A stretch of 46,433 nt of DNA, taken from assembly GCA_964509485.1 (NCBI GenBank), contig CAZDXW010000006.1:1-46433 (forward strand), read 5' to 3'. Shown here piece after piece: positions 8,423-33,532 of this stretch. A model generated the notes under the pieces. It searched no databases, had not been told where the DNA came from, and was given only the letters and a program-made list of their open reading frames with translations. Every line of letters begins with the position of its first letter. Positions within the stretch are counted from its first letter, which is position 1. A program made the position numbers and the translations under genes. This DNA is from an uncultured Christensenella sp. (GTDB lineage Bacteria; Bacillota; Clostridia; Christensenellales; CAG-138).

Positions 8423-9325
8423 TCAAATCCAACGTGTTCCATCGTTCTCTTCAGGATAGATCGTCGCGCGCTTGAGCGGCAGCAGCCGATCCAGCCCCAG
8501 CTCGATGTAGTCGTTCCACATGCGAAAATCGTGGTCATACCCCTGCGCGCAGATATACTCAACGTCAAAATCCATCTCTTTGAGGATTCTCACGTCGTTC
8601 TCCATCCGCGCGCGAATGAACTCCTCGCTGCCGCAGGCAAGCACAAACCGGCAATCCGGCAGGCCGTTTGCGCGGTTCGTTCGGGCAACCTGCGCCAGAT
8701 CAAACTCGGAACCAACGACGGTTTCCGCCGCGCCAAAGGTCATACCATAGAGCGGAAATCCATTCTGAAAATGATCCGACTCCAACTCACGTTTCAGCGT
8801 TTCCGCGTCCAGCGTCATCCCGATTCCGCCAGAGATGTCCATGCAGACGCTGTAGCGATCCGGCCACGTGATCGCGGCGGCGAGCGCAGCGTTTCCACCC
8901 ATCGCGTAGCCCATGATGAAGTTGTCCTCGCGGCGGCTCGAGGAGGCAAACAGCGTTTGAACCACCGTTGGCAGCTCCTCCGTCACAAACGTCAGATACG
9001 GCACCCCGTAGCGCGTGTTCGCGCCAAAGCTGTTGGCAATGTTCGGGGTAACGAGCATCACGCGGTTTCGCTGCGCAAAGGCTTCCGCATTCGTGTAGCG
9101 GTAGGTCAGCGTGTCGTCGTCCCCGCCGCCGTGCAGCAGATACACGGTTTGAAACTTCATGCCCGGCGCGTATTCATCCGGCTTCTCGCGCAGCACCAGT
9201 TGGTGCGAGCGGTTTTTGAGCGCGGGCGTTTCTGGGCAGCGGAAGGTGTCCGTCGGATACACGATTGTGATGTCAACGTAGTGCCCCAGCACCTCGCTGC
9301 GGTAGTTGAACCGTAGTTTCCCCAT
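8423..9325 (-). CDS. Esterase-D/'putative esterase' family (PF00756-like) protein with Ala in place of the nucleophile Ser
   Basis: 300 aa, RBS GAGGAG. It aligns by eye with the paralog at 20629-21465: REDNFIMGYAMGG versus REDNFIAGLSMGG (Ser->Ala), and ACGSEEF versus ACGQEDT (Asp->Glu). HGGGDD and the C-terminal His (YDHDF) are retained. No signal peptide. Confidence 0.8.
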   Translation of the reverse strand: MGKLRFNYRSEVLGHYVDITIVYPTDTFRCPETPALKNRSHQLVLREKPDEYAPGMKFQTVYLLHGGGDDDTLTYRYTNAEAFAQRNRVMLVTPNIANSFGANTRYGVPYLTFVTEELPTVVQTLFASSSRREDNFIMGYAMGGNAALAAAITWPDRYSVCMDISGGIGMTLDAETLKRELESDHFQNGFPLYGMTFGAAETVVGSEFDLAQVARTNRANGLPDCRFVLACGSEEFIRARMENDVRILKEMDFDVEYICAQGYDHDFRMWNDYIELGLDRLLPLKRATIYPEENDGTRWI

Positions 9326-9358
9326 GGCGTCTCCTCTAACTCTTTGTCTCTACGCCGA

Positions 9359-10996
9359 TCATTCTGGCTGAACGCGTTCCAGCGAGCCGTCTGGCAGCCG
9401 ACGGAATTGCTTGACGTAATTCCAGCCGAGCCACGCCTCCTCCGGATTGCAGTCGTGCCCCTTTCCGTCCGCGAGCGAATAGTTGTAGAGATTCTGCGGT
9501 TTCGCGTCGTTCGAGAAGAACCGGTGCGTCGTGTACTTGCGCTTGGGGTAGCGCGGATTCGGATGATACTCCTCCACCACGTCCCCGACAACGCCGACGC
9601 CGCAGCTCGCGGGCCGATCGATGTATGGCGTTTCCTTGCAGGTGATGTTGTTGTAGGACTTCCAGAAGTCATATTGCACCTGCTGGCCGCTGCCGCGCAC
9701 CGCCGGATACTCATAGTCCCGCGTACCGTAGGTATACCAAACCGGCATGCGAAAATCGTAGTCCAGCTTCTTTTTCCAGGCGATGGCAAAGGGCTTTGTG
9801 TTTCGATTCTGGCAAAAACGCGTGTTATCCGCAACAACCGCGGCAATGATTTCCGGGTTCGTCATTGCAAACACCTGCGACATCGCGGAGCCGTTCGAGA
9901 ACCCGCCGATGTAGACGCGCGTGTCGTCCACGGCGTAGGTCTGCTTCATGTAGGTGATCAGCGCATACAGGTAAGCGACGTCGTCCGGCTGCTCCGGCAC
10001 CATGTCCTGGTTCCAGCCCCATCGCGCGGTTGCCCACGGATAGACGAGCAGGAACCCTTCCTTCTCGGCGATTTCATGCATCTTGATCGTGTTGCAGATG
10101 TTGCCCGGCGTGTCCGCCCCGCCGTGCTGAAAGAGCATCAGCGCAACGGGTTTGCCTGGATTCTCCTTCACGCAGGTCGGAACGTATTCAAACCACGTGT
10201 GCGCAACGCCGCCGTTGTCGCCGAGCCGCGTATCGTCCTCGTGCACGATGAAACGGTAGTCGTCCCGCACGGTTCGCGGCCCCATGTCGCCATATTCGCA
10301 GGAGTTCGGGCGGCATACCTTCGAAAAAAGGTGCTCCCAACCGTAGCGAACAACCGCGGGAGTCAGCTCGTTTGGTTGACCTTGCAACGTTTCTACAAAC
10401 TGCGCGTTGTTATAACTGCAATAGGCGTGCTCTGCCGTACCCGCGTCCACCGCGTTGATCCGCCGGAAAAACGCGTTGCTCGCTTCGTCCGAATTCCAGA
10501 GAATCGCGGAAACGGCTGCGTTCACACTTTGTTCCTCCGCCTTCGGCGCGAGTTTCCCGCCGAGCGTAAATACGCCCGCAACATTCACCGGATTGCAGGC
10601 GGCGAGCGCATGCAACAGGGAACCGCCCGTGCCGCTGCCGATAAAATACCGCGCGTTGTGCATGTTGTGGTAGATGCCGCAGTCGACAAACCCCTCCTGA
10701 TGGTTAAACAGACGAACGAGTTCTGCGATATCGTTTAAATCGTCGCGCTGCTCCGGGTCAAGCGTCCAGTTCCAGCCGCCGTCGAGTGGGTTCGGAAACA
10801 GCAGCAGAAAGCGCTGTTGATCCGCCAGTTCGCAGAAGCTCGCGTCGGCAAGCAGCGCGCGCGCCGGTTGTTCGCCGCCCTGATCGGTCAGCACTGTAAT
10901 CAGGGTGTTCTCATAGCAGCTCAAGCGCTCCCCCGCGGGATAGAGCACATACATGCTCCTCCCCAGTTCGGGATATTCCAAAAATTCCAGTCTCAT
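9359..10996 (-). CDS. Two-module PHB-depolymerase/LpqC-like (CE1-type) esterase; the N-terminal module is degenerate
   Basis: Start trimmed to ATG 10996 (MRLEFLEYPE...; GGAG RBS; 17 nt after the upstream stop). The C-terminal module has LMLFQHGG and the nucleophile elbow YIGGFSNGSAM. The N-terminal module has the equivalent stretch YFIGSGTGGSLL, with Thr at the Ser position and the first Gly lost. No signal peptide. Confidence 0.7.
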   Translation of the reverse strand: MRLEFLEYPELGRSMYVLYPAGERLSCYENTLITVLTDQGGEQPARALLADASFCELADQQRFLLLFPNPLDGGWNWTLDPEQRDDLNDIAELVRLFNHQEGFVDCGIYHNMHNARYFIGSGTGGSLLHALAACNPVNVAGVFTLGGKLAPKAEEQSVNAAVSAILWNSDEASNAFFRRINAVDAGTAEHAYCSYNNAQFVETLQGQPNELTPAVVRYGWEHLFSKVCRPNSCEYGDMGPRTVRDDYRFIVHEDDTRLGDNGGVAHTWFEYVPTCVKENPGKPVALMLFQHGGADTPGNICNTIKMHEIAEKEGFLLVYPWATARWGWNQDMVPEQPDDVAYLYALITYMKQTYAVDDTRVYIGGFSNGSAMSQVFAMTNPEIIAAVVADNTRFCQNRNTKPFAIAWKKKLDYDFRMPVWYTYGTRDYEYPAVRGSGQQVQYDFWKSYNNITCKETPYIDRPASCGVGVVGDVVEEYHPNPRYPKRKYTTHRFFSNDAKPQNLYNYSLADGKGHDCNPEEAWLGWNYVKQFRRLPDGSLERVQPE

Positions 10997-11012
10997 TTGA
11001 ATGCTCCGTTTC

Positions 11013-12182
11013 TCAGTTTTCCATCGCTTCGTAGGCCAAATCCCGAATGGTCGGGTGAATTTCGTTGTACGCGGCAATCATGCCGACGATTTCATGCGTG
11101 TAGAAAATGCTCACGTGATTCTTTGGGTCGATCAACGCGTATCCGCCCGCTGCCCCGTCCCAACCGAACTCGCCGACGGGGCTCTTCGCGCAGTTGGCGT
11201 CCACCAGTGTGCGCACGCCGAGGCCGTAGCCGTAGCCGATCTTGCCCGTCTTGTGAAAGTCCTTTAGCTGCTGTTCGTTCAGCCGGTTCTGCTGCATCGC
11301 GGCAATCGACTCCGGCCGCAGAATCCTTAGTCCGCTCGCGCCGACGCCGCCGTTTGCCAGCGCGTCCAGCACGAGGCTGTAGGAATCCACCGTACAGGTC
11401 AGCCCCGCGCCGCCGCTGTCGTGGCGGTCGGAGAGGCGAAAGATCATGTCGCTGTTCGGCGAAATCACGCCCGTTTGAAAGTCCATTCGATATTGCGCGC
11501 TCAGGCGGCTTTTCTCGCTTTCCGGCGTGTGAAAATACATGTCCGTCGCGCCGAGCGGATCAAACAGATGCCGCTTCACGTGCTGGGCAAACGGCTCCCC
11601 GCCGATGAGCTCCACCACCGCCGCGAGCACGTCGTGCCCCAAGCCATAGGAAAAGCGCGTTCCCGGTTCGGCAATGAGCGGCATTGCGGCAATCGCCTTA
11701 ACCACCTCGCGCGTCGTAGCCTGGTTTCCGCTTTCCTGCTGAATCTTTCGAATCGGCTCGGAGAACACGTCGTAGGAAAGCCCCGCCGTCATGGACATCA
11801 GCTCGTGAATGTGAATCGGGTGTTTCGCCGGTGCTAGCGGCGAGGCCAGCGTCGGCCAGGCAAACGGCCACTCGCCAATGCGAAAGTCCGTCGCCACCAT
11901 CATGTTCGCATACTCCGGCAGGTAATCCGAAAGCAGATCGTCGAGTCCCAGCCTGCCTTGCTCCACGAGCTGCATCACCGCGGCCATCGTAACAATCTTC
12001 GTGCAGGAATACACGTCGTATAAATCACGTTCGGAAACGGGTTTGGTCAGCGCATAGTCGCTATAGCCGGTCATGTACCGGTAGACCGGTTCGTGCTCAC
12101 GCAGGATCTTGCAGTCCAGCCCGTGCACGCCGTAGCGCGCTTCCAATGTATTGAGGTACTCGGTCAATTTCGAAAAGTTCAT
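11013..12182 (-). CDS. Beta-lactamase-fold serine hydrolase (family VIII esterase / EstB-like)
   Basis: 389 aa. S-x-x-K motif in DLYDVYSCTKIVTMAAVMQLVEQGRLGLDD, typical of the class C beta-lactamase/DD-peptidase fold. No signal peptide. RBS GGGAGAG. Confidence 0.85.
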   Translation of the reverse strand: MNFSKLTEYLNTLEARYGVHGLDCKILREHEPVYRYMTGYSDYALTKPVSERDLYDVYSCTKIVTMAAVMQLVEQGRLGLDDLLSDYLPEYANMMVATDFRIGEWPFAWPTLASPLAPAKHPIHIHELMSMTAGLSYDVFSEPIRKIQQESGNQATTREVVKAIAAMPLIAEPGTRFSYGLGHDVLAAVVELIGGEPFAQHVKRHLFDPLGATDMYFHTPESEKSRLSAQYRMDFQTGVISPNSDMIFRLSDRHDSGGAGLTCTVDSYSLVLDALANGGVGASGLRILRPESIAAMQQNRLNEQQLKDFHKTGKIGYGYGLGVRTLVDANCAKSPVGEFGWDGAAGGYALIDPKNHVSIFYTHEIVGMIAAYNEIHPTIRDLAYEAMEN

Positions 12183-12194
12183 AGGGCTCTCCCG

Positions 12195-13298
12195 TCAGGC
12201 ATTTTTACGATGTGAAATCATCCAATCCAGAATACCATATTCGTTGTGCAGCACAAGCACCCAGCTGTTGTGATTGGCTCCGCGAATCTCCCGCTCGGTG
12301 AGGTTCGGCGAAGCGACAATGCCATATTGCTCCAGCTCCTCCGGCGTAAAGAGCGTGTATTTCATGTCCTTTCGCCCCTGCTCCCAGAGTTTGGTCAGCG
12401 CGCGGAGGATATACGCGTGCCTGCCCGCCTGATGGTCGATGTACGCGGTCGCGATATACGCGGGCACGTTCGGCCAGTTTTCGAGCAGCGGGTAGCTGTC
12501 CCCGTTCATGCTCGGGCAAATCGGTACCGCCGCGGCGAACAGATCCGGCGCGGAAGAAACCGTCGTAATGACGCCCGCCCCGCCCATGCTCATGCCAATC
12601 ACGTAGACGCGGCTCGCATCCACCATTCCTTTTACGATCATCTTGCGAATCAGGTCGCAAACCCGGCCCACGTAATCCCGGTTCCAGCCGCGATCGCCAA
12701 GACCGATGCACGTCTCGGCGCCAATGCATACCCTGAATGGGTCGCCCTTGGCCATCATACGCGCAAACATCTGCTGCATGTCGAGCCCATTGTCCGGCGC
12801 CTGCGGAGCCAACACATACATATCCGGAAAGCGCTTTACGAGGCTGATTGCCCCGATCGTGCCCGTGAGTTGCAGCAGATTGTCCGTTCCGCACTCGCCG
12901 CCGCCATGCAGAAACAGAATCAGCGGACGTGGCGAATTCGCCTTGGTTTCATAGAGGCGATAGATCACGTCGCCCTCGCTGTATTTGGAAAACAGCGCCT
13001 CGTCCCGAACGACGACTTCGCCGATCTCCGCCTTGGTGATCGCTTGCCCTGCCACTTCCACCCGGAATTCCGCGCGGTAGAGGAACGGGTCAAACACGAT
13101 CCGCGTTTCTCCGCCCTCCTGCGTAACGGAAGTTACGCCCAAATTCGGAATCGTCGTGCAGCAGTCGGTGTAGGCGTTGGTCAGCGTGATTTCCTCTTTG
13201 GACACCGGCTTATCCAGCCCCGTGATGCGGATTTCTTCCACCATCTGGCCAAAATCGCCAATGAACGTATAGGCGGTGATTGCATTGTATTTGCTCAT
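12195..13298 (-). CDS. Alpha/beta hydrolase (carboxylesterase / predicted-peptidase type) with an N-terminal ~100-aa beta-rich domain
   Basis: Start trimmed to ATG 13298 (MSKYNAITAY...; RBS GGAGGAG). PLILFLHGGGECGTDN and nucleophile elbow VYVIGMSMGGAG. No signal peptide. Confidence 0.75.
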   Translation of the reverse strand: MSKYNAITAYTFIGDFGQMVEEIRITGLDKPVSKEEITLTNAYTDCCTTIPNLGVTSVTQEGGETRIVFDPFLYRAEFRVEVAGQAITKAEIGEVVVRDEALFSKYSEGDVIYRLYETKANSPRPLILFLHGGGECGTDNLLQLTGTIGAISLVKRFPDMYVLAPQAPDNGLDMQQMFARMMAKGDPFRVCIGAETCIGLGDRGWNRDYVGRVCDLIRKMIVKGMVDASRVYVIGMSMGGAGVITTVSSAPDLFAAAVPICPSMNGDSYPLLENWPNVPAYIATAYIDHQAGRHAYILRALTKLWEQGRKDMKYTLFTPEELEQYGIVASPNLTEREIRGANHNSWVLVLHNEYGILDWMISHRKNA

Positions 13299-13354
13299 TC
13301 TCTTCTCCTCCGATCGGTAAAATCCAATGAATAATGTTTGTAACGGAATCGCGA

Positions 13355-14842
13355 TTATTGTTCCAGCAGCATATCCTGAATCAGCCAGGATAGATACCGC
13401 GAAATCTCCGCGTAATGGTCGGTCACGTAGAGCACGCCGTCGTACTCGGACACTTGCAGGTTCATCGCAAACCGGCAGAACCACTCCATCGAAATATAGA
13501 GCCTGCCTTCGCGAAAAATCGCTTCGCAGAGCATCTGCTCCACGCGGTTGTCCGCCACGCAGCCGATGCACCCCTCGGCAAACTGAAATGTCCGCCCGTC
13601 AAAGAGCGTCAGCCGCGCCGCCTTACCCGCATGCAACGTTTCCAGCTCCGCCTGGAATACCCCCGCCAGAAAGTCCAGCGGCACGCAGAGGTAGCTTCCG
13701 CGGACGATCTCTCCGCCGTTGAGACCGTGGTATTTCAGCTTGTCCCAGCGGAGTGTCTTTGCCCCCATGGGAACAATCCGGTTGTTCACCCAAGCGCTTT
13801 TCGCGCCTTCGCAGACGGCAATCGCGAACGAGTCGCCCTCCCGCTTCCGCAGCGGGATCGTGTGTTCCAGCGTGCCGTCCTCGCGCTTTCGCACGCCGGA
13901 GAACAGATAGTCCCAAACCAGCTCGGCGTCGTCAAACGTCTGCCCGTGGTCGCGGTTCTTGCCGTCCATCAAAACGACGTTTGCCTTGTTTCCCGCAAAG
14001 AACGCAAAGCCCTTCTCACCGCGAATGCAGATCTGCGGCAGTTCTTGCGCCTCGTTGACCGCGCGCCAGTAGTCGAGATTCGCGCGCACCACACTGCGGT
14101 CGTCCGCGCCGTAGTGGTAGGGTGTTTTGTCGTGTTCCAATCGGGACTGCCAGTTGTCCAGCGCGCCGCCCTTATTGATGACGCTTCCGTCGGGCGCAAA
14201 CAACAGCTTCGGGTTCGTCGGGCAGCCGGACCCCGCCGTCGCGGCAAAGTATTTGCCGCAATAGCGCGCAACCTGGCTCGTCATGCAGTCCCCCATGGAC
14301 ATGCCCTGCATGTACACGCGACCCTTGTCAACGTTGTAGCGCTGTTTCATGCGCTCCAGCAGCGCGAGCACGAGCTTTACGTCGTGAAACTCCTCTACGG
14401 TTCCCGTCGGGCGGTTGAGCGAAGGAATGCCCGGCGGCGCGGGTTTCGTCACCTCGTCCAGCGTCTCGGGGTCACACTCGATCATCCACATGCGTTTGTC
14501 GTGCGCGTTTGGAAACACGCAAATGAATCCCTCGCGGTCAGCCACCAACGACCAGGAGGTGTAGATGCACTGCCCCCAGCCGGTCATCAGTCCGCCGTGC
14601 ATGGAGAAGACAAGCGGCGTCGGTTTGCCGGGATCGTAGCTTTCCGGTACGTATTCGTACCAAACGTCCTCCAGCCCGTCGTCCGTAATCTGCCCGCGGT
14701 GCTCCGTCAGGCGCTTCGGGTAAACCTGCGAGTTGTTGCCGTTTTCGTTGACCACCATGTCGCTGCCATAGATCGCCTCTGGCAGGTAGTCGCGGTTTGC
14801 ATCGTTTGGCATGCCTGCCAATACGGAAATCTTGCCTTGCAT
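13355..14842 (-). CDS. PHB-depolymerase-family (LpqC/CE1-like) esterase, paralog A, with a ~170-aa C-terminal extra domain
   Basis: Start trimmed to ATG 14842 (MQGKISVLAGMPNDANRDYLPEAIYGSDMVVNENGNNSQVYPKRL). PLVFSMHGGLMTGWG and the elbow VYMQGMSMGDCM. The C-terminal region (RWDKLKYHGLNGGEIVRGSYLCVPLDFL...LYVTDHY) looks like a copper-amine-oxidase-N-terminal 'stalk'-type domain; that part is low confidence. Confidence 0.75.
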   Translation of the reverse strand: MQGKISVLAGMPNDANRDYLPEAIYGSDMVVNENGNNSQVYPKRLTEHRGQITDDGLEDVWYEYVPESYDPGKPTPLVFSMHGGLMTGWGQCIYTSWSLVADREGFICVFPNAHDKRMWMIECDPETLDEVTKPAPPGIPSLNRPTGTVEEFHDVKLVLALLERMKQRYNVDKGRVYMQGMSMGDCMTSQVARYCGKYFAATAGSGCPTNPKLLFAPDGSVINKGGALDNWQSRLEHDKTPYHYGADDRSVVRANLDYWRAVNEAQELPQICIRGEKGFAFFAGNKANVVLMDGKNRDHGQTFDDAELVWDYLFSGVRKREDGTLEHTIPLRKREGDSFAIAVCEGAKSAWVNNRIVPMGAKTLRWDKLKYHGLNGGEIVRGSYLCVPLDFLAGVFQAELETLHAGKAARLTLFDGRTFQFAEGCIGCVADNRVEQMLCEAIFREGRLYISMEWFCRFAMNLQVSEYDGVLYVTDHYAEISRYLSWLIQDMLLEQ

Positions 14843-14852
14843 AGAACCCTTT

Positions 14853-15857
14853 CTATCGCGCGGTGTCGCTCGCTCGCGGTGCGCGGATGCTGGTTGTGCT
14901 CTTTCGTTCAATGTACTCCACCGGCAGCGCGGACCGCTGCGGAACGGGGTTGCCGTTGATGCGCGAAATCAGCAGTTCCACCGCCAGTTGCCCCATCTTC
15001 TGAATCGGCTGCGCAACGGTGGAAAACTCAAACAAGCGGGAGACGTCCAACCCGTCGAACCCGACGAGCGGCAAGCGCTTCCGTTGCGAATCTGGCTGTT
15101 GCAGCAGCATATGCAGAAATCCCGCGGCAATCAGGTCGCCGAGCGCAAACACACCGTCGATCTCCGGATGCTGTTCCATCTGCGCGAGGATCCGCTCTGT
15201 TTCCTCCGGGCCAAAGTTGACGTCGTTTAGAATGCATTCGATGTATTCCATTCCGCGCGAAGTGCATTCCGCGCGGAACCCGTTCTGCCGCTGGTACATC
15301 GCCATGTATTCCGGCACCTCGGTGGTCAGCACGAGAACGTGCCGGCTGCCCGCGCGGTAGAGCGCGTCCGCCGCCAGCACGCCGCCGCCGAAATTGTCCG
15401 CCATAACCGAGGGAACGCCTTCCAGCTCGCGGTCGATGCTGATGATCGGAAAATCGCTCTCGGTATACAGCGAAGCGTCGCCGAGCCGACTGCAAAGCAA
15501 AATGCCGTCCACCTTGTTCGCCTTGAGCAGGCTGACCATCTCCAGCTCCTTCGTGTCGCTGTAGGCGGACTGGCAGAGCATCAGTTTGTAGCCGCTGCGG
15601 CTGCAAGCGCGCTCCACCGCGTCCGTCAAGCGGCTGAAAAACGCGTAGTCGACCACCGGCACCACCAGTCCGATGATGCCGCTCTTCTGCGTTTGCAGCG
15701 CGCGCGCCATCGGGTTTGGCTCGTATCGAAGTTCCGCTATGGCCTCGGCCACGCGCCGCTGCGCCCGAGGGCTAACGATCTCCCGCTGGTTCATATAGCG
15801 GGAGACCGTCGCCGTCGAAACGCCCGCGCGGCGCGCAACATCCTTAATGTTTACCAC
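14853..15857 (-). CDS. LacI family transcriptional regulator
   Basis: 334 aa, GTG start with GGAGG 8 nt upstream. HTH is VNIKDVARRAGVSTATVSRYMNQ...VSPRAQRRVAEAIAELRYEPNPMARAL, followed by a periplasmic-binding-protein-like sugar-binding core. It is embedded between esterase paralogs A and B. Confidence 0.9.
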   Translation of the reverse strand: MVNIKDVARRAGVSTATVSRYMNQREIVSPRAQRRVAEAIAELRYEPNPMARALQTQKSGIIGLVVPVVDYAFFSRLTDAVERACSRSGYKLMLCQSAYSDTKELEMVSLLKANKVDGILLCSRLGDASLYTESDFPIISIDRELEGVPSVMADNFGGGVLAADALYRAGSRHVLVLTTEVPEYMAMYQRQNGFRAECTSRGMEYIECILNDVNFGPEETERILAQMEQHPEIDGVFALGDLIAAGFLHMLLQQPDSQRKRLPLVGFDGLDVSRLFEFSTVAQPIQKMGQLAVELLISRINGNPVPQRSALPVEYIERKSTTSIRAPRASDTAR

Positions 15858-15906
15858 GTAAGCCGCCTCCGCCGCTAATCTGCGGCTGTTTCTAAGCGCA
15901 GGTCGT

Positions 15907-17427: not shown

Positions 17428-17442
17428 ATGCTCCTCCAACCG

Positions 17443-18972: not shown

Positions 18973-18991
18973 AGTTGCTCTCTCCATTTTC

Positions 18992-19801: not shown

Positions 19802-19802
19802 G

Positions 19803-21465: not shown

Positions 21466-21491
21466 GTTGGCCTCCTGTTTTTGTAGATCGA

Positions 21492-24456: not shown

Positions 24457-24502
24457 GAAACGCTCCCTTAGATTGATTGATGATCTTCGAGAAAAACCGT
24501 TT

Positions 24503-24517: not shown

Positions 24518-24741
24518 TTTTCGGTAAAAAGAAAGTGGGATTCGGTTGTTCTACCGTGGTGATCGATGCGGCGCAGCGGGCGCTCGACGCTCGTTCTCGA
24601 ACGCCCGCCGCGCCAAACATCCTCTCTCCTACAGCCAGGTCGATGGCGAGTCTTTAATACTTGGGTTCTGTGGTTGCCTTTCGGAAACAAACGCTGGAAA
24701 AGAACTTCTTCGCTCGATTGACCCGCAGGATCAGAGACTGC

Positions 24742-24772
24742 TTTTTAAAACAGCCGAAGGCCCCCTCCGCTG
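24742..24772 (-). terminator. Possible weak intrinsic terminator after the ABC permease genes
   Basis: Imperfect hairpin cagccgaagg (24751-24760) / ccctccgctg (24763-24772), 8 of 10 pairs with a very small loop. On the minus strand it is followed by TTTT (24747-24750). It lies about 55 nt downstream of the permease stop (24827). Confidence 0.3.
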
Positions 24773-24826
24773 CACGCGATGGTCGCGTATGATCTTTTTC
24801 GTTCAGCGGAATGCAGATCAACATTG

Positions 24827-25708: not shown

Positions 25709-25723
25709 GCTTCCATTCCCCCT

Positions 25724-27074: not shown

Positions 27075-28625
27075 ATGAAAAAGCACAGAGCCCTATTGGC
27101 GATCCTGGCAATGCTTCTGCTTGTCGGCATGCTCGGCGCTTGCGCTGCCCCCGCTGCACCCGCCGCAGCGACCGAAGCGCCCGCCGCCGAAGCAGCCACG
27201 ACGGACGCCGCCGCGACCGACGGAACGTATCCCGTCATCCGCATGGCGTACACGAGAATTTTTGCAACGGATTCCGAAGCAAAGATTGAAGCCGCGCTGA
27301 ACGAAATTCTGCGCAAAGAAGCCGGCGCCGAGATCGACCTCGTTCCGGTTGACTTCTCCAGCATGAACACGCAGTTCAACCTCATGCTCACGGGCGGCGA
27401 AGACTCGATCGACATCTTCTCGTCGTTCTGGTACATGCCGATGAGCACCCTGTATGCCAACGGTCAGCTCGCTCCGCTGAACGACCTGCTGGCGTCCGAC
27501 GGTCAGGGCATCCTCGACCTGTTCTCCGATGTACCCGGCGTGCTCGAGTGCGCCCAGATCGGCGGCCAGTATTACGGCCTGCCCTCCTACGGCCCGTATT
27601 CCTCCCCGATGATTTACATCGTGAAGGAAGGCTCCTCCAAGGCCGCAAACATCGACTGGTCCACGGTGAAAACGCTGGACGACGTCACCACCGCGCTGAT
27701 CGCGATGAAGGACGCCAATCCGGACAAGTACTATGTCCCCGGCGCAACGCAGACCTACTGGATTCCGAAGGACATCGACTACCTCGGAGACACCAACTTC
27801 CTCGGCGTTCTGACCGACCCGCTCAACAGCACGCAGGTGGTCAACTACTATGAGTCCGACTACTTCCTCAACCTGCTCGACAACGTCAAGACCTGGGTTG
27901 ACCACGGCATCATCAATCCGGACGCCATGAGCAACACGAACCCGACGCTGATGAGCGTTCAGTTCGGCATCACGGAAGGCACCCCCGGCTACTGCTGGAA
28001 CCTCGACGAGTGGATCTACGAAGCCAACCTCCAGCAGACCTACGGCGACAACATGGTCGGCACGCAGCTGGGCGACTCGCTGATCACCACCGGCAACGCG
28101 ACCACCTACCTCTGGCACATCACGAGCTTCTGCGAGAACAAGGAAGCCGCCATGCGCGTACTCAAGGTCTTCTACACGAACGCGGAAGCCGCCAACCTGC
28201 TCGGCAACGGCATTGAAGGCGAAAACTACGTCGTGGACGACAAGGGCTATGTCCGCTTCCCCGAAGGCAAGGACATGACGAACTGCGGTTGGACCGGTCT
28301 TGGCGCATCCTACAACCTGCCCAACTCCTCCGGCTGCCCGGTTTGGTACTATCAGCCCGACAATATGTGGCAGATGATGGCCGATTCCAACAAGGCCGCG
28401 AAGAACTCGCTGGCGCTCGGCTTCACCTTCGACAGCTCGCCGGTTGCGGACCAGATCACCGCTTGCAGCAACGTCATCGCGCAGTACTATCTGCCGCTGA
28501 TCAACGGCGAAGTCAACATTGACGAAGTGCTGCCGGTCTTCCAGCAGGCGCTGCGTGACGCCGGCATCGAACAGGTCATTGCCGAAAAGCAGACGCAGCT
28601 GGATGCTTGGCTGGCCGCGAAATAA
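27075..28625 (+). CDS. Extracellular solute-binding lipoprotein of a carbohydrate ABC transporter (LplA/YtcQ-like, ~516 aa)
   Basis: Start trimmed to ATG 27075 (AAGGAGAGAG RBS). Signal peptide plus lipobox MKKHRALLAILAMLLLVGMLGAC, then an Ala/Pro/Thr/Glu-rich linker. Size and composition match large family-1 SBPs. It is transcribed divergently from its permeases. Confidence 0.8.
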   Translation: MKKHRALLAILAMLLLVGMLGACAAPAAPAAATEAPAAEAATTDAAATDGTYPVIRMAYTRIFATDSEAKIEAALNEILRKEAGAEIDLVPVDFSSMNTQFNLMLTGGEDSIDIFSSFWYMPMSTLYANGQLAPLNDLLASDGQGILDLFSDVPGVLECAQIGGQYYGLPSYGPYSSPMIYIVKEGSSKAANIDWSTVKTLDDVTTALIAMKDANPDKYYVPGATQTYWIPKDIDYLGDTNFLGVLTDPLNSTQVVNYYESDYFLNLLDNVKTWVDHGIINPDAMSNTNPTLMSVQFGITEGTPGYCWNLDEWIYEANLQQTYGDNMVGTQLGDSLITTGNATTYLWHITSFCENKEAAMRVLKVFYTNAEAANLLGNGIEGENYVVDDKGYVRFPEGKDMTNCGWTGLGASYNLPNSSGCPVWYYQPDNMWQMMADSNKAAKNSLALGFTFDSSPVADQITACSNVIAQYYLPLINGEVNIDEVLPVFQQALRDAGIEQVIAEKQTQLDAWLAAK

Positions 28626-28692: not shown

Positions 28693-29883
28693 ATGGAACA
28701 AACAAACACGCCGCAGGAACCAACTAAGCTTTGGAATTCGTCGTATATTCTGGTACTCGTAATCAGCACGTTGAGCTCGTTTTCCTTCTTCATGGTAGCG
28801 ACGATTCTATCCAAATATCTGGTCGGCATCGGCACCACCATTGCGCTCGCTGGCATCATCGTCGGTCTGTTTTCCCTGACCTCGCTGTTCAGCCGTCCGT
28901 TTTGCGGGCTGATGGCGGACCGTCTCAACAACGTCCGTCTTCTGCTGGCAAGCAACGTGCTGATGGCGGTCGGGTTAATTGGCTTTGCGTTTACCAGGAA
29001 TATTCCTCTGATTTTCTTCTTCCGTATTTGCAGCGGCTTAGGGTTTGCCGTCGGCAGTACCGTTCAGGTTTCCCTGATCATCCGGTTCATCCCGAAGGAT
29101 CGCATGGGCGAAGGAATCGGTTATATGGGCATCAGTCAGCTCATCAGCACCGCGTGCGCGCCGGGTCTCGGCCTCGCGATTGCGGACGCGGCGGGCATGC
29201 AGGCCACCTTTCTGACCGCCGCCGCCCTGCCCGCGCTGACCTGCGTCTTTCTACTGTTTATCAAAAATCTAAGCCCCAAGGCTCCCCCGGCGGAACCGCA
29301 CAAGATTCAACTTCGCGACTTTTTTGAACCGAAGGCCCTGTTCTTTACGCTCCCCTACTCCACGCTCTCCTTTGTAAACGGCATTATCGCTTCCTACCTC
29401 GTGCTGTTTGCGGACGCGCAGGGAATCAAGGGCATCAGCATCTATTTCACCGTCTACGCCGTCTTTCTGTTTCTGGTTCGCCCCGTCGCGGGCAAGCTCA
29501 TGGACTCCAAGGGAATTCGCTATACGGTCTTTCCCGGCATGCTGCTCACCGCGATATCCATGTTTCTACTTGGGTTTAGCAGCACCATCTGGCTCGTGTT
29601 GCTCACCTGCCTGCTCCGCGCCATCGGGCAAGGCGCCGCCCAACCTTCTCTGCAGGCGGGCTGCATCAACTACGTCGGGCGCGAGCGCAGCGGCGTCGCC
29701 ACCAGCACCTATTTTCTCGGCGGCGACGTTGGGCAGGGCTTTGGGCCAATGGTTGCGGGCGCGATGCTCGCGCAGATTGCGGGCGTTCCCGGATACCGGT
29801 TTGTCTTTAGCTTTTGCGGCTGCCTGATTCTTTTGGCAATGGTCTACTTCTATTTTGCCGGTCGAAAGGAGAAGCTCCTATGA
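28693..29883 (+). CDS. MFS transporter
   Basis: 396 aa from ATG 28693 (the track ORF starts at TTG 28687). About 12 hydrophobic helices. MFS loop motif GLMADRLNNVRLLL between TM2 and TM3. Confidence 0.8.
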   Translation: MEQTNTPQEPTKLWNSSYILVLVISTLSSFSFFMVATILSKYLVGIGTTIALAGIIVGLFSLTSLFSRPFCGLMADRLNNVRLLLASNVLMAVGLIGFAFTRNIPLIFFFRICSGLGFAVGSTVQVSLIIRFIPKDRMGEGIGYMGISQLISTACAPGLGLAIADAAGMQATFLTAAALPALTCVFLLFIKNLSPKAPPAEPHKIQLRDFFEPKALFFTLPYSTLSFVNGIIASYLVLFADAQGIKGISIYFTVYAVFLFLVRPVAGKLMDSKGIRYTVFPGMLLTAISMFLLGFSSTIWLVLLTCLLRAIGQGAAQPSLQAGCINYVGRERSGVATSTYFLGGDVGQGFGPMVAGAMLAQIAGVPGYRFVFSFCGCLILLAMVYFYFAGRKEKLL

Positions 29884-31394
29884 CGAAGCACTCGTTTCCG
29901 CGCTGCGCGCCGGAGGAAATTGGCGTCTCCAGCCGTCAGGTCATGGCCTGCATCCGCGCGCTGGAGCATGACCAAACCACGATGAACGGCTTTGTCGCCG
30001 CGCGGCACGGCAAGGTGTTTGCCGAGTGCTGGTGGTCGCCCTACGAACCGGAATTGGTGCACTGCAACCATTCGCTCGGTAAGAGCTATACCGCAACGGC
30101 GATCGGCATCGCCATCCGCGAGGGTAAGCTCTCGCTGGACACGCGCCTCTGCGGCCTGTTTGCGGACGAGATTGCCGAACGCGGCATCGAACTATCCGAC
30201 AAAACGCGGCGCATCACAGTCCGTCATGCGCTGACCATGACCAACGGCATGGCGCACCATCCCGCGATGAGCGGGGACTGGATTGGCAACTATTTTCGCA
30301 CGCCAATGGCCTATGAGCCAGGCACGCGTTTTGCGTATAACTCCTCCGGCACATGCCTGCTCGGCGCGGCAGTATTGAAAGCCACCGGGCAGAACATGAA
30401 AAAATATCTGACGGATCGGCTGTTTCGTAAGATCGGCATCGATCCGGAGTCGTTCGTCTGGTTGACATTCCCGAATCAAATCGACGCCCAACCCGGCACA
30501 TTCGCAAAGACGGAAGATAATCTCCGCTTAGCGCAGCTCTACCTCAACGGTGGAAGCTGGAACGGGGAGCAGATACTCGATCCAGACTTTGTGAAAAATG
30601 CGCTCTCCGTGCAAATTGAAAACCCCTATGCGCCGGAGGAAAAGGACGGGCGCTGCGGCTATGGCTACCTGCTCTGGGCCTGCAGCATTCCCGGTGTGTT
30701 CCGTTTTGACGGCGGGCAGGGCCAGTTCGGCCTCATCTGGCCGGAGAAGGATCTCGTCGTCGCGGTGCACGAGGGCGCAATCACCCCGACCGGCCCGCAG
30801 AAAACGCTCGATACGCTCTACGAAACCCTGCTGTTGCAGCTTGCAGACGAGCCTCTTCCCGCCGCGCCGGAGGACTACGCCGCGCTGCAAGCGCTGCAAT
30901 CCTCGGTTCATCTCCCGTCCGACGAGCCAAACCGCCTGCCGCTGAACCGCGCGTTCGCCGGTTTATGGCGCGTGGACGAGGGCGTGTTCGACCCATGGAT
31001 GGCCGTTTCTCCGCCGGGCAGCGGGGACTTATTTGCCGCGTTTCGTTCTCCGGAGCGGAATGGTTCGATCTCCGCCTTTGGTTTGGACGTTACAGACGAC
31101 GCGCTGACGATTTCGCTCAGTACCGGCGCGGTTCTGCGTGCCGTCTGGGACGGCACGCTCACGCGGTATATCGTCGATACGCCGTTTCCCGGCCTAGGCG
31201 CATACGCCGCGACGGCGCGGTTCTCCGACGAACAACAGCTGAACGTCCGCATCCACTGGCTGAACGGCTGGTTCGAAACGGAGCTTACGCTGGAACTGCT
31301 GGACAATGCGCTGGCAATCGTAACGCGAAAGCTCCGCCTGAATCCGGCGGACAACTATCTGGTCGAGACTGCCTCGGCCGTTCGGGAGGCATAG
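29880..31394 (+). CDS. Beta-lactamase-fold serine hydrolase (esterase/amidase) with a C-terminal extra domain
   Basis: Start trimmed to ATG 29880 (AAGGAG RBS; ATGA overlap with the MFS stop). S-x-x-K in NHSLGKSYTATAIGIAIREGKLSLD, and FAYNSSGT downstream. No signal peptide. Confidence 0.8.
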   Translation: MTKHSFPRCAPEEIGVSSRQVMACIRALEHDQTTMNGFVAARHGKVFAECWWSPYEPELVHCNHSLGKSYTATAIGIAIREGKLSLDTRLCGLFADEIAERGIELSDKTRRITVRHALTMTNGMAHHPAMSGDWIGNYFRTPMAYEPGTRFAYNSSGTCLLGAAVLKATGQNMKKYLTDRLFRKIGIDPESFVWLTFPNQIDAQPGTFAKTEDNLRLAQLYLNGGSWNGEQILDPDFVKNALSVQIENPYAPEEKDGRCGYGYLLWACSIPGVFRFDGGQGQFGLIWPEKDLVVAVHEGAITPTGPQKTLDTLYETLLLQLADEPLPAAPEDYAALQALQSSVHLPSDEPNRLPLNRAFAGLWRVDEGVFDPWMAVSPPGSGDLFAAFRSPERNGSISAFGLDVTDDALTISLSTGAVLRAVWDGTLTRYIVDTPFPGLGAYAATARFSDEQQLNVRIHWLNGWFETELTLELLDNALAIVTRKLRLNPADNYLVETASAVREA

Positions 31395-31397: not shown

Positions 31398-32504
31398 ATG
31401 ATGAAAGAATACGGTTGGAAGGAACTTTCGGGGTTGGTCTTTCCCCTCGGCCGCACGTATGTCAGTGAGCAACAGCAGGCGCTGTACTTTAACTGGAGCG
31501 CCAGCGGAATCACCTTTCAGTTTCACGGAACCGAGCTTACCGCGCGGTTCTGCGCGGAGTCTGGCGAAGAGGTCGAAGGCGTTCCTTGGGACGAGACCGC
31601 CCCCCGCCGCAAAACCTGGCCGTGGGTCGCCGTCTACTTGGACGACCAGCCGGAACCCGCGCGCATCTTTGAGGTGTCCGCGCCGGAGCAGGACTGGCTT
31701 TTGTTTCAGAGTGAGCAACCGGAGACGCACCGCATCCGCGTGCTCAAACGCACGGAGAACTACAAAACGTTTCTCGGCCTTCGTTCGCTGGCCGCGGAAG
31801 GCGAAATTCTTCCTCCGGTGCTTTCGCCCCGAAAGCGAATCGAATTCGTCGGGGATTCCATCACCTGCGGCTTCGGCAACGGCAGCAAGGAGCGCGATCG
31901 TGCTTTCTTCTCTGCGGAGGAGGACGGCCCACTCGCCTACGGGCCGCGCGCGGCAGAGCTACTGAACATGGAAGTCAGCTGCGTCTGCATCTCCGGCATC
32001 ACGGCGGTCAAGCACCAGAGCTGGCCGGTCGCGTTTGCCATGGACGAGCTTTACGCCTACACCGACCGTCCGCATCAGGAGAAATCCGGCTCAGGAAACG
32101 ATCTCTCCCGCTGGGATTTCGCCGCAAAGCAAAACGACTATGTCGTGCTCAACCTCGGCACGAACGACGCGTATGCAACGCTCTTTGGCGGGGACGGCGA
32201 GGAGGCCGCGTTCGACCGCGATTACCTCGTTTTTCTTAGGCATGTTCGCGCCTGCAACGGGCCGGACACGCAGATCATCTGCGCGCTTGGCAGCATGAAC
32301 TATTATCTCTGGCATAACATCGTTTGCGCGATGGAAATCTATCGCCAGCAGACCGGAGACGCGAAGATTCACCTCTACCGTTTCCGGCTGATGCACCCCA
32401 TGGACGGATTTGGCGCCGCGGGACACCCTTCCATGGCGACACACGAAAAGATGGCGCAGGAGATTGCGGACGTGATCCGTTCGCTGGAAACGAACGGCAA
32501 ATGA
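31398..32504 (+). CDS. CE2-like SGNH/GDSL acetyl esterase (N-terminal beta-sandwich plus SGNH domain)
   Basis: 368 aa. Block I IEFVGDSITCGFGN, block III VLNLGTNDA, and C-terminal GAAGHPSMATHEKMA (His). The ~140-aa N-terminal module precedes the SGNH domain, as in CE2 enzymes. Confidence 0.75.
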   Translation: MMKEYGWKELSGLVFPLGRTYVSEQQQALYFNWSASGITFQFHGTELTARFCAESGEEVEGVPWDETAPRRKTWPWVAVYLDDQPEPARIFEVSAPEQDWLLFQSEQPETHRIRVLKRTENYKTFLGLRSLAAEGEILPPVLSPRKRIEFVGDSITCGFGNGSKERDRAFFSAEEDGPLAYGPRAAELLNMEVSCVCISGITAVKHQSWPVAFAMDELYAYTDRPHQEKSGSGNDLSRWDFAAKQNDYVVLNLGTNDAYATLFGGDGEEAAFDRDYLVFLRHVRACNGPDTQIICALGSMNYYLWHNIVCAMEIYRQQTGDAKIHLYRFRLMHPMDGFGAAGHPSMATHEKMAQEIADVIRSLETNGK

Positions 32505-33532
32505 TAACGAGCAGTATGCAAAACGGCGTGGTACAGGTTGGCATTCTCGGCTGCGGGCGCATCGCGCGGACGCGGCATATTCCCGAACTCGTGGCGAACC
32601 CAAATGCGCGTCTGGCGGGTTTTTACAACCGCACGCTCGCCGTCGCTGAGGAACTGGCCTCCGGCCTTGGCGGACGGGCATATGCCACGCCCGAAGAGTT
32701 GCTCGCGGACCCGTATCTCGACGCGGTCTGCGTGCTCACGCCGAACAGTTCCCATGCGGAGCTCGCCATCTCCGCGCTCCGCGCGGGAAAGCACGTACTC
32801 TGCGAAAAGCCAATGGCGGTGTCGCCGGAGGAGTGCGAGCGGTTGGCGGAGGCGGAACACGCCTCTACGAATATCCTCATGATCGCGCAGAACCAGCGGT
32901 TCCACGCCGCGCACGTCAAAGCGCAGGAGTTGATCGCGAGCGGCACCATCGGCCGCGTTCTCACCGTCCAGGCCGCTTTTTCGCACGGCGGGCCGTCGAT
33001 GGACGCAAATTCCTGGTTCTTGAGCAAGTCGACCGGACGCCTCGGTGTTTTGGGCGATCTCGGCGTGCACAAAATCGACCTCATTCGGTTTTTAACCGGT
33101 CAGGAGATCGTCGCCATCAGCGCCGTGGTCGATACGCTCGACAAAAAGAGCAAGGACGGCGGACGCATCGAGCTGGACGACAACGCCGCCTGTCTCTTCC
33201 GCCTCAGCGGCGGCGCAATCGGCACCCTGACCGTTTCCTGGACGGCCTATGGCAAGCCGGACGTCTCGACCCGCATTTGCGGAACGCTGGGCACCATCGA
33301 ACTCATGCGAACCTTCGAAGAGCCGCTCGTGCTCTACCGTCCCGGAACCGAGCCGGAGCAGATTTCAGTCGAGTCAATTACCAACAGCGGAGTCGTCGAC
33401 GCGTTCATCGGTGCCATTGTCTCCGGCGCACCGTCCCCCGTCTCCGCTGCCTCCGTTCTACCAAGCATGCGGGCGCTCTTTGCCGCCTACGAGAGCGGGC
33501 GCACCGGCGGAAATATGATCCGACTGGATTAA
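32501..33532 (+). CDS. Gfo/Idh/MocA family NAD(P)-dependent oxidoreductase
   Basis: Start trimmed to ATG 32501 (ATGA overlap with the previous stop). Rossmann motif VGILGCGRIARTRHIPEL and the family signature GKHVLCEKPMA. Confidence 0.85.
   Translation: MITSSMQNGVVQVGILGCGRIARTRHIPELVANPNARLAGFYNRTLAVAEELASGLGGRAYATPEELLADPYLDAVCVLTPNSSHAELAISALRAGKHVLCEKPMAVSPEECERLAEAEHASTNILMIAQNQRFHAAHVKAQELIASGTIGRVLTVQAAFSHGGPSMDANSWFLSKSTGRLGVLGDLGVHKIDLIRFLTGQEIVAISAVVDTLDKKSKDGGRIELDDNAACLFRLSGGAIGTLTVSWTAYGKPDVSTRICGTLGTIELMRTFEEPLVLYRPGTEPEQISVESITNSGVVDAFIGAIVSGAPSPVSAASVLPSMRALFAAYESGRTGGNMIRLD

Follow-up and report, generated by a model that had tools for sequence, protein, structure and literature searches.

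Judged from its sequence, a 46,433-nucleotide (nt) stretch of DNA from an uncultured Christensenella sp. (GenBank assembly GCA_964509485.1, contig CAZDXW010000006.1; the whole stretch is referred to here as the window) carries, at approximately positions 7709–36945, a conserved sugar locus of what appears to be a new design, in which predicted esterases outnumber glycoside-cleaving enzymes by about 10:1 and are arranged around an uncharacterised clade of subfamily GH13_18 and an unannotated family of esterases of 500 amino acids (aa). The gene content makes it probable that the locus encodes a pathway in which a small alpha-glucoside bearing several ester groups is imported and then acted on by multiple esterases in the cytoplasm. 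The substrate would most likely be found among the acylated sucroses (acyl-sucroses of plants, or sucrose esters with phenylpropanoid or acetyl groups), an assignment on which our confidence is evenly divided.

The gene map was compiled from a six-frame list of open reading frames (ORFs), their translations and start codons supported by ribosome-binding sites. On the minus strand it comprises an array of 15 co-directional genes (8423–26707) in the order permA, permB, GH13_18, E11, E10, E9, E8, E7, E6, LacI, E5, E4, E3, E2 and E1 (E1–E13 being the proteins with an esterase fold), with junctions, in that order, of 15, 370, −8, 26, 46, 1, 4, 15, 49, 10, 56, 12, 16 and 33 nt. The 15 genes, tight junctions (−8 to +56 nt) and single 370-nt gap described in an initial annotation of this DNA were thereby re-derived. 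To these can be added a 16th co-directional gene, encoding a DUF624 membrane protein (7709–8341, minus strand; PF04854, 35.6 bits), which lies 81 nt past E1, is syntenic in relatives (related loci L006–L010 and L063) and is regarded as the last gene of the minus-strand operon. A plus-strand operon encodes a solute-binding protein (SBP), a transporter of the major facilitator superfamily (MFS), E12, E13 and a Gfo/Idh/MocA oxidoreductase, with junctions of 67, −4, 3 and −4 nt; both families and junctions agree with the earlier description of a second tight operon bearing a beta-lactamase-fold hydrolase and a CE2-like esterase. Promoter and terminator scans (8 and 27 predictions vs 6.8 and 21.9 in shuffled sequence, respectively) were not taken as operon evidence, and a search of the whole window at the Rfam gathering threshold gave zero matches. 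Hidden Markov model (HMM) searches identified no glycoside hydrolase (GH) family besides GH13_18 among the proteins of the whole 46-kb window, across which the initial claim that GH13_18 is the sole glycoside-cleaving enzyme thus holds. When compared to the definition of a Gram-positive utilisation locus, the SBP-dependent ATP-binding cassette (ABC) importer and the regulators are present, while the GH-dominated complement of carbohydrate-active enzymes is absent: carbohydrate-esterase-type genes dominate the locus and a single phosphorylase is its only glycoside-cleaving enzyme.

Thirteen proteins display an esterase fold, E1–E11 being encoded on the minus strand and E12–E13 on the plus strand. 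Pfam and NCBIfam searches confirmed the 11 ester-hydrolase folds of the array and the family breakdown proposed for them, i.e. four PF00756 proteins (E1, E8, E9 and E10, scoring 45.7, 50.1, 35.5 and 64.2 bits, respectively, vs a cutoff of 22), four polyhydroxybutyrate (PHB)-depolymerase-like proteins (the two-module E2, E5, E6 and E7), a beta-lactamase-fold family VIII carboxylesterase (E3), an alpha/beta hydrolase (E4) and a SASA protein (E11). HMM and structure searches returned esterase families, neither peptidases nor glycosidases. The term 'esterases' stands as regards the fold of all 13 proteins, but not as regards catalysis for E1, E9 and the N-terminal module (N-module) of E2, in which the nucleophilic Ser is lost. 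Catalytic motifs are kept in ten proteins and in the C-terminal module (C-module) of E2, those of E12 and E13 being read from the window translation and the others being conserved in orthologues; within the PF00756 set, a Ser-nucleophile G-x-S-x-G motif and a His are found in E8 and E10 and not in E1 and E9. By a hydrophobicity heuristic, none of the 13 proteins has a signal-like N-terminus, their maximum 12-residue Kyte-Doolittle mean being at most 2.06 vs 3.23 for the SBP, the lipobox of which reads L-G-A-C; by this measure the earlier contrast between esterases devoid of signal peptides and a binding protein with a clear lipobox is upheld. Since CE1-/feruloyl-esterase-like, tributyrin-esterase-like, family VIII, CE2 and SASA types coexist, the set suggests chemically mixed esters, for example acetyl together with hydroxycinnamoyl or short branched acyl groups, as on plant sucrose esters.

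The 500-aa PHB-depolymerase-like family is represented by three minus-strand paralogues, namely E5 (paralogue a, 13355–14842; NF050058, 68 bits), E6 (paralogue b, 506 aa, 15907–17427; assigned from its alignment and an AlphaFold2 model) and E7 (paralogue c, 17443–18987; PF10503, 25 bits vs a cutoff of 23), which are mutually 51–64% identical (E5–E6 54%, E5–E7 51%, E6–E7 64%). Because they fall into separate orthologue clusters, E5 having its own, with one member per locus, their divergence is consistent with a division of labour by position or acyl group. E2 and E5–E7 score 51–69 bits against TIGR01840 (cutoff 107.85) and 68–117 bits against NF050058 (cutoff 150), and E7 alone among the four passes the PF10503 cutoff. 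In the family alignment of E6, which served as the anchor protein of the comparative searches, G-M-S-x-G, HGGLMTGWG and NRDHGQT are invariant, and its AlphaFold2 model matched PHB depolymerases (9byu and 8daj), acetyl xylan esterases and feruloyl esterases at a Foldseek probability of 1.0, with 14–18% identity to the top eight matches. The fold is that of an alpha/beta hydrolase of the CE1/PHB-depolymerase type with a Ser-His apparatus, GMSxG and DHG being invariant in the E6 family, and the G-x-S-x-G elbow and HGG oxyanion motif of E6 are shared with the enzymes of Lihuaxuella thermophila (8DAJ/9BYU) and the acetyl xylan and feruloyl esterases of Aspergillus. Unlike these enzymes, the 500-aa family is predicted to be cytoplasmic and carries an N-terminal segment with NENGNNS and a C-terminal beta-rich domain of 180 aa. 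The latter (the last ~180 aa) has a marginal likeness to a copper amine oxidase N-domain (Foldseek with the domain alone, E ~0.1). The N-terminal segment, GTPDDDNRxYLPExIxGSDxVVNENGNNS (residues 10–40 of E6 and likewise in E5 and E7), is strictly conserved, yet is modelled by AlphaFold with a pLDDT below 50.

As PHB depolymerases are the best NCBIfam and Foldseek matches of this family, and as promiscuity is frequent among family VIII and esterase-D enzymes, the esters or oligo-esters that are hydrolysed might not be carbohydrates at all (hydroxyalkanoate oligomers, cutin/suberin fragments or xenobiotics being candidates), the linkage of the esterase genes to sugar genes then being incidental. 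Such a function is highly improbable: the PHB-depolymerase model scores lie far under the cutoffs, the proteins are cytoplasmic by prediction and are accompanied by a sugar-type CUT1 transporter and a LacI repressor, the CE2-like and SASA esterases belong to carbohydrate-specific families, and the linkage to GH13_18 is conserved and includes a gene fusion.

The 493-aa GH13_18 protein (22975–24456, minus strand) scores 615.8 bits against TIGR03852 (cutoff 334.4), and its closest solved enzymes are 7qqj (538 bits) and 7qqi, both with the canonical loop NLDIYQ. In the numbering of the Bifidobacterium adolescentis sucrose phosphorylase (BaSP), residues D50, F53, H88, F156, Q160, R190, D192, Y196, E232, H234, H289, D290 and R399 are invariant in the window enzyme and 34 locus-associated orthologues; these comprise the catalytic triad and the glucosyl residues, which we take from the BaSP structures to line the −1 site. 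The triad (D192/E232/D290) and −1 subsite of subfamily GH13_18 are thus in place, and triad and glucosyl-site residues are identical to those of BaSP (1R7A/2GDU) and the Firmicute enzymes 7QQJ/7QQI of the same subfamily. Loop A of the +1 site serves as a specificity fingerprint in GH13_18, that of sucrose phosphorylases being N(L/V)D(I/L/V)YQ with the Asp as specificity determinant (PMC7178133, PMC12703740). In contrast to these sucrose phosphorylases, which have D followed by I/L/V at positions 342/343, the clade of the window enzyme has Q/K/R in place of BaSP D342 and R/S/T in place of L343; the window loop reads GKQAQRYQ (fingerprint AQRYQ) and is a few residues longer than that of 7qqj. 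The loop was surveyed in the 120 closest database homologues (67–92% identical), 118 of which were scorable, the other two giving no match to the extraction pattern, and fingerprints such as AQRYQ, VQRYQ, ARQYQ, FKSYQ and similar were obtained. None of the 118 displays the (L/V)D(I/L/V)YQ motif of sucrose phosphorylases, the FDVHQ/FDTYQ of promiscuous sucrose-6F-phosphate phosphorylases, the KXXYYQ of the strict ones, the GAIYQ of glucosylglycerol phosphorylase or the pattern of the glucosylglycerate enzyme. The window enzyme also has none of the features of a strict sucrose-6F-phosphate phosphorylase (KXXYYQ, a length of ~530–570 aa and a kinase nearby), and no kinase is encoded in the window. 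Because the glucosyl-site residues are kept but the fingerprint Asp is replaced by Gln/Lys/Arg, the window enzyme is regarded as a genuine alpha-glucoside phosphorylase of GH13_18 that belongs to an uncharacterised clade. Its initial description as a member of the sucrose-phosphorylase family was correct as to family, and in the absence of the fingerprint a sucrose-phosphorylase identity should not be presumed; the public labels of the clade, 'sucrose phosphorylase' and 'sucrose 6(F)-phosphate phosphorylase', probably reflect automatic annotation. An exact-sequence look-up of the window enzyme returned one 2.8-kb contig.

A loop A unlike every published fingerprint, with Lys/Arg gained, speaks for an alternative to a sucrose core. 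The substrate could then be a non-sucrose acylated alpha-glucoside (acyl-glucosylglycerol, acyl-glucosylglycerate or the deacylation products of microbial alpha-glucosyl glycolipids), the basic, remodelled +1 loop binding glycerate, glycerol or another, possibly anionic, aglycone; GH13_18 does include glucosylglycerol and glucosylglycerate phosphorylases (PMC7178133), and digester and subsurface Anaerolineae, among the bacteria carrying the locus, would fit a microbial substrate. This possibility is quite unlikely. The glucosylglycerate enzyme has a (T/S)ETN acid/base motif and a loop-A Glu, and the glucosylglycerol enzyme has VGAIYQ (PMC7178133); these motifs are absent from the window enzyme, the acid/base region of which reads PEIHEN and loop A of which ends in RYQ. 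Its closest relatives overall are sucrose phosphorylases, sister loci use a sucrose-6F-phosphate-type enzyme with a kinase, and glycolipids with two esters would not require ~10 different esterases.

To establish how widely the gene set is conserved, E6 homologues and their neighbourhoods were compared. E6 has 839 detectable homologues, the best 120 of which are 67–98% identical to it and all unnamed or 'hypothetical', and a profile search run exhaustively on 1.84 billion cluster representatives retrieved only 141 at E <= 1e-30, indicating a compact family. A scan of one genome per species yielded 67 related loci, of which 46 were available with the full 21 kb (+/−10 kb flanks); since the clusters often exceed the fetched flanks, gene counts in related loci are lower bounds. 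The 67 loci belong to Christensenellaceae, Oscillospiraceae (Gemmiger, Subdoligranulum, Faecousia, Ruthenibacterium, Neglectibacter and Acutalibacter), Lachnospiraceae (Faecalicatena contorta, Mediterraneibacter hominis, Roseburia, Butyrivibrio and Schaedlerella), Vallitaleaceae, Anaerolineae and Anaerobacterium chartisolvens, and the gene set was also found in further contigs outside the 67, including Paenibacillus. According to record titles, the habitats include the rumen, the gut of chickens, mice and Hadza people, and digesters or the subsurface; the window proteins themselves are 95–99% identical to those of metagenome-assembled genomes named 'Clostridia bacterium CTOTU7604' and 'Christensenella sp.'. 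In a blastp matrix of the 46 full-length loci, E3 was present in 41, E4 in 37, the E8+E9 pair in 37, E10 in 33, the ABC permeases in 30 and GH13_18 in 29. Each 21-kb locus holds a median of 9 esterase-fold genes (range 3–15), with a median of three 500-aa paralogues. Recurrent extra genes encode a COesterase+GDSL fusion (9 loci), an extra PF00756 protein (7), CE4 (5), SGNH proteins, multidrug and toxic compound extrusion (MATE) pumps (9 loci) and a P-loop kinase (6 loci); no GH is among the recurrent extra genes of the 67 loci. The gene set is thus co-conserved across phyla, in at least five families or phyla, which was the comparative check proposed with the initial annotation, and the locus is, on this comparison, a genuine conserved gene cluster and not a chance neighbourhood. 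GH genes were encountered near two clusters: in L077 (12481–19856), an abundant Lachnospiraceae contig, genes for GH39, YesMN, GH3 and a second ABC system directly adjoin the cluster of esterases and GH13_18, and in Paenibacillus (L075; 15105–17480 and 21251–21461) a GH95-type gene lies ~2 kb past the cluster and a GH106 gene begins at the contig edge.

Three independent lines support a functional tie between the phosphorylase and the esterases. Firstly, GH13_18 directly follows permB, after 10–39 nt, in 17/27 related loci listed, mostly of Lachnospiraceae, Vallitaleaceae and Anaerolineales. Secondly, neighbourhoods were looked up in reverse, with three independently chosen GH13_18 clade members as starting points: one of Paenibacillus sp. 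YIM B09110, one on a metagenome contig and one a Lachnospiraceae protein that is indexed in 264 collection blocks. In three of three cases the gene lay within this cluster, surrounded by genes for an SBP, permeases, 500-aa esterases, an MFS transporter and PF00756 proteins. Thirdly, a Paenibacillus contig carries a natural fusion, an 850-aa phosphorylase-esterase protein, the first 560 residues of which are 74% identical to the long, sucrose-6F-phosphate-phosphorylase-type GH13_18 of locus L003 and the last 288 residues 66% identical to the neighbouring Ser-bearing PF00756 esterase. Because the permB-GH13_18 gap measures 10–39 nt in many relatives, the 370-nt gap of the window (24457–24826) is best regarded as a peculiarity of its lineage and the phosphorylase as part of the importer operon. 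Compared with shuffled sequence, the fold of this gap is more stable (z = −3.1). Within it lie a long hairpin rich in GC, a second one resembling a terminator (24769–24755, minus strand), and a perfect palindrome of the catabolite-responsive element (cre)/LacI type, TGAAAACGATTACA (24503–24516), 46 nt upstream of the GH13_18 start. The palindrome is the sole such site in the window, against a chance expectation of ~2 at one mismatch or fewer, and is suggestive only as a regulatory site.

These linkages also bear on an alternative in which the esterases de-esterify acetylated or feruloylated cell-wall xylo-, manno- or gluco-oligosaccharides in the cytoplasm, the required GHs being encoded elsewhere and GH13_18 serving for co-occurring sucrose. 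The nearest folds and structures are indeed acetyl xylan, feruloyl and CE2/SASA-type carbohydrate esterases, the SBP is of the large extracellular solute-binding type, and one related locus lies beside GH39, GH3 and a second ABC system. This alternative is nevertheless unlikely, as the gene families that recur in the 67 related loci include no GH, as GH13_18 shares an operon with the permeases and, in Paenibacillus, is fused to an esterase, and as its clade lay inside such clusters in all three reverse look-ups.

A second GH13_18 type in sister loci provides information on the sugar core. In L003, L004, L023, L046, L065, L071, L073 and L074, a tight gene pair encodes a P-loop kinase of ~317 aa and a GH13_18 protein of 563–569 aa with KXXYYQ; a match of 580 bits relates the long GH13_18 to the strict Ilumatobacter sucrose-6F-phosphate phosphorylase (6s9u), and the 569-aa protein of L003/L071/L073 displays the features of the strict type (KXXYYQ, length and clustered kinase). 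L073 holds both the long and the window-type GH13_18. A recurrent sub-module (L074:7961–10513; L073:6090–10558; L003:15017–20136) comprises a CE4 or PHB-like esterase, the kinase, the long GH13_18 and a PF00756 esterase, the last two being one 850-aa protein in Paenibacillus. Strict sucrose-6F-phosphate phosphorylases of gut Firmicutes accompany a sucrose-kinase domain (PMC6521584), and that of AgaSK was modelled on uridine kinase (PMC7688924). The kinase of the locus gives a weak PRK/uridine-kinase match, and several stand-alone homologues are named 'alpha-galactosidase' by JGI, a name they would be likely to receive if annotation was transferred from the bifunctional AgaSK; a PDB sequence search with the L003 kinase returned weak APS-kinase P-loop matches and no AgaSK. 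A homology of the kinase to the sucrose-kinase domain of AgaSK is thus suggested. Plants make few alpha-glucosides besides sucrose and its derivatives and, given this together with the kinase/strict-phosphorylase module, sucrose would be the most economical core. A sucrose-type glucoside core, for which the nearest solved structures of the window GH13_18 also speak, being sucrose phosphorylases (7qqj), is proposed here with a confidence that is balanced between acceptance and doubt.

In the pathway that we propose, the esterified sugar would enter intact via the SBP and the CUT1 ABC importer, and paralogous esterases would remove acyl groups differing in position or chemistry, with E9 and the E2 N-module, which have Gly for Ser, acting as non-catalytic partners of E8 and the E2 C-module. 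GH13_18 would then phosphorolyse the alpha-glucosidic bond to yield glucose-1-phosphate and fructose, or a still-modified fructose, while the MFS transporter, and MATE pumps in relatives, may expel the released acids. In some genomes the P-loop kinase and the strict sucrose-6F-phosphate-phosphorylase-type GH13_18 would join or replace the final step. The import, deacylation and phosphorolysis design of the initial annotation is strengthened by the permease-GH13_18 junctions, the fusion and the kinase module, although its phosphorylase should not be presumed to be a sucrose phosphorylase and its MFS transporter may be an exporter. Of the refuting conditions named with that annotation, none of those accessible to computation (families other than esterases, export signals, lack of co-conservation) was borne out. 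Two further substrates were dropped: in the case of sulfoquinovosyl-glycerol, the sulfonate would occupy the invariant −1 site, and in the case of tannins, gallotannins have beta-glucose cores.

Several points weigh against a pathway for acylated sucroses. The substrate is predicted from gene content, and the window GH13_18 is without the fingerprint Asp, such that unmodified sucrose may not be its substrate. As both are present in L073, the two GH13_18 types may not be interchangeable and may act on different intermediates, and GH13_18 lies within +/−10 kb in only 29 of the 46 full-length loci, which is in part a flank-length limit. Three of the esterase-fold units (E1, E9 and the E2 N-module) are probably not esterases. 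For the Anaerolineae of digesters and groundwater and for Paenibacillus, which carry the locus as well, it is not obvious that specialised sucrose esters of plants would be a major substrate. Finally, GH genes do lie beside the clusters of L077 and L075, these being the only ones near a cluster among the contigs examined and being outside the conserved set.

The units that have lost the nucleophile are conserved as such. E1 (8423–9325, minus strand) has Ala at the nucleophile position (GY-A-MGG) in 33/33 sequences of an alignment of the window protein and its orthologues, with the His motif HDF in 32/33 and HNF in one. In E9 (19803–20582, minus strand; GV-G-TGAYG), Gly takes the nucleophile position and is followed by Thr in the eight commonest elbow variants, which account for 47/49 aligned sequences, and its His motif shows no conservation. 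The gene is translationally coupled to E8 (18992–19801, minus strand; GFSMGG) by a junction of 1 nt, the Ser of E8 is conserved in 59 aligned sequences, and 53 E8/E9 adjacencies were counted for 52 E9 genes in related loci. E2 (9359–10996, minus strand) matches NF050058 in two stretches (116.7 bits); its N-module has G-x-G-T-G, without Ser, its C-module has GFSNGS, and the two are 24% identical, which indicates that the N-module is a diverged copy of the catalytic C-module. We infer that E9 and the E2 N-module are pseudo-esterase partners of E8 and the E2 C-module, respectively, in the one case as separate and in the other as fused pairs.

The remaining esterase-fold proteins retain their motifs. 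E3 (11013–12182, minus strand) scores 169 bits against PF00144 (cutoff 27 bits), has carboxylesterases 4ivi, 7pp3 and Est-Y29 as its best PDB matches, and carries an S-x-x-K motif (SCTK in the window) conserved among aligned relatives. The 367-aa E4 (12195–13298, minus strand; GMSMGG) gave weak Peptidase_S9, PETase and Abhydrolase matches around the nucleophile elbow and 35 bits against TIGR01840, its motifs being conserved across 57 aligned sequences. E10 (20629–21465, minus strand; GLSMGG) is a PF00756 carboxylesterase most similar in the PDB to esterase 4rgy, FphF, tributyrin esterase and feruloyl esterases. E11 (21492–22982, minus strand; PF03629, 56.1 bits vs a cutoff of 24.8) is a predicted SASA-type (SGNH-like) O-acetylesterase that matches 9h4u ('carbohydrate esterase FI8') and the sialate O-acetylesterases 9ega and 7kmm, with GQSN and GESD conserved. 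On the plus strand, E12 (29880–31394) is a beta-lactamase-fold serine hydrolase (PF00144, 100 bits; NF045925, 3-succinylated cholic acid synthase, 185.7 bits vs a cutoff of 800) with a readable SLGK, and E13 (31398–32504) is a CE2-like SGNH esterase (PF17996 CE2_N, 46.4 bits vs a cutoff of 27.9; GDSL, 37.3 vs 32.9; AxeC2 model, 90 vs 500) with a readable GDS block-I motif.

The importer comprises two CUT1-type permeases (both PF00528), permA (25724–26707) and permB (24827–25708) on the minus strand, and the lipoprotein SBP (27075–28625, plus strand; SBP_bac_1, PF01547, and DUF3502, PF12010, 96 bits; lipobox LGAC), the nearest PDB entries of which are the extracellular solute-binding proteins 5swa and 5mlt (at most 79 bits). 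Pfam searches found no ABC ATPase gene in the locus; the ATPase of the importer is encoded outside it, and CUT1 systems commonly share one ATPase. The MFS_1 transporter (28693–29883, plus strand; PF07690, 201 bits) has sub-threshold NCBIfam matches, mostly to efflux families, and its gene lies directly after the SBP gene in L005 and L073–L075 and adjoins it in L076. Because of these efflux-like matches and the MATE pumps in 9 related loci, export of released acids by the MFS transporter is at least as plausible as import of the substrate; of the two importers initially proposed, the ABC system stands and the MFS may be an exporter. The LacI-family repressor (14853–15857, minus strand; PF00356 and PF00532) is embedded among the esterase genes and present in 21 of the 46 full-length loci, and an NCBIfam scan gave it no sugar-specific assignment. 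A YesN-type response regulator with REC and AraC HTH domains (33618–35213, minus strand; NCBIfam response-regulator/AraC matches, the orthologues carrying PF00072 and PF12833) is encoded beside a YesM-type sensor histidine kinase (35233–36945, minus strand) that has an N-terminal transmembrane segment and is 35–45% identical to PF06580-bearing neighbours of related loci. The Gfo/Idh/MocA oxidoreductase (32501–33532, plus strand; PF01408 and PF22725) is translationally coupled in the window and was found in 0/67 related loci; it is probably a lineage-specific addition and not a conserved member of the locus.

The surroundings of the locus contain further genes. Just outside it, an ORF at 5687–7543 (plus strand) encodes a 618-aa protein that starts with a transmembrane segment, continues with an alpha/beta-hydrolase domain and ends in a multi-pass membrane region; it was not found in related loci and could be a surface esterase acting prior to import. 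A tocopherol-cyclase-like PF14249 protein (2883–4016, minus strand) overlaps a DUF362 protein with a C-terminal membrane region (937–2886, minus strand); another gene of the tocopherol-cyclase type directly neighbours the MFS and SBP genes in L076 (L076:3694–4671), and such a gene may be an occasional accessory of the system. The locus is bracketed by this DUF362 gene and a second one (36878–38299), which is fused to a 4Fe-4S dicluster domain, and the two suggest the genome of an anaerobe. Finally, the ORF at 38386–39381 (plus strand) encodes, in one polypeptide, both an isochorismatase domain (133 bits) and an Arr domain, i.e. that of a rifampin ADP-ribosyltransferase (155 bits).

Among known systems, the Rgaga1 sucrose/raffinose locus of Ruminococcus gnavus E1 encodes an ABC importer, the AgaSK sucrose kinase and the strict phosphorylase RgSPP (PMC6521584, PMC7688924). 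Common to this Firmicute sugar locus and that of the window are ABC import through an SBP, regulation of the AraC type and, as the sole sucrose-bond cleaver, a GH13_18 located in the cytoplasm; the sister loci L003, L073 and L074 moreover have a strict-type GH13_18 beside a P-loop kinase. Unlike Rgaga1, the window locus is without an alpha-galactosidase, has 10–13 esterase-fold genes and has a GH13_18 with neither a sucrose-phosphorylase nor a KXXYYQ fingerprint. The sucrose-6F-phosphate branch proposed for the sister loci would thus be known already from R. gnavus (PMC6521584). The window locus, which is predicted to combine ~11 esterases with one phosphorylase and no GH, also has a counterpart in logic. 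In the beta-mannan loci of Roseburia intestinalis, said to have been described by La Rosa and colleagues in 2019, acetylated manno-oligosaccharides are reportedly imported and processed by cytoplasmic CE2 and CE17 esterases and GH130 phosphorylases. The sequence of intact ABC import, position-specific cytoplasmic de-esterification and phosphorolysis would therefore be known from such Firmicute loci, which in contrast reportedly have two esterases, several GHs and a polysaccharide-derived substrate. In plants, the carboxylesterases known as acylsugar acylhydrolases (ASH) of tomato remove acyl groups stepwise from acyl-sucroses; the chemistry proposed here is the same, but ASH enzymes are an unrelated carboxylesterase lineage outside transport or catabolic operons. 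No bacterial catabolic route for multiply acylated sucroses was found in the literature searched on GH13_18, acylsugars and sucrose esters, nor was a locus of this design described there, in line with the initial statement that none had been characterised; a transcriptome paper on Butyrivibrio dealt with other matters. It is a tentative proposal, which we put forward with more reserve than the pathway itself, that plant acyl-sucroses or phenylpropanoid sucrose esters have here their first dedicated pathway in bacteria, which would have spread horizontally among gut Clostridia, Paenibacillus and Anaerolineae and would include a new GH13_18 specificity (for a fructose-side-modified sucrose or another alpha-glucoside), a new 500-aa cytoplasmic CE1-like family with position-specific paralogues, and obligate esterase/pseudo-esterase pairs.

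Multiply acylated sucroses are abundant defence and storage metabolites of plants, and sucrose esters are used as food additives. If the proposed pathway is correct, they would constitute a substrate class used by gut, rumen and digester Clostridia without any glycosidase. The GH13_18 clade that is automatically annotated as 'sucrose phosphorylase' would gain a functional context and an assayable set of substrates, and the locus would provide ~ten probably regio-selective sugar-ester hydrolases of biocatalytic interest as well as an example of conserved pseudo-esterase partners.

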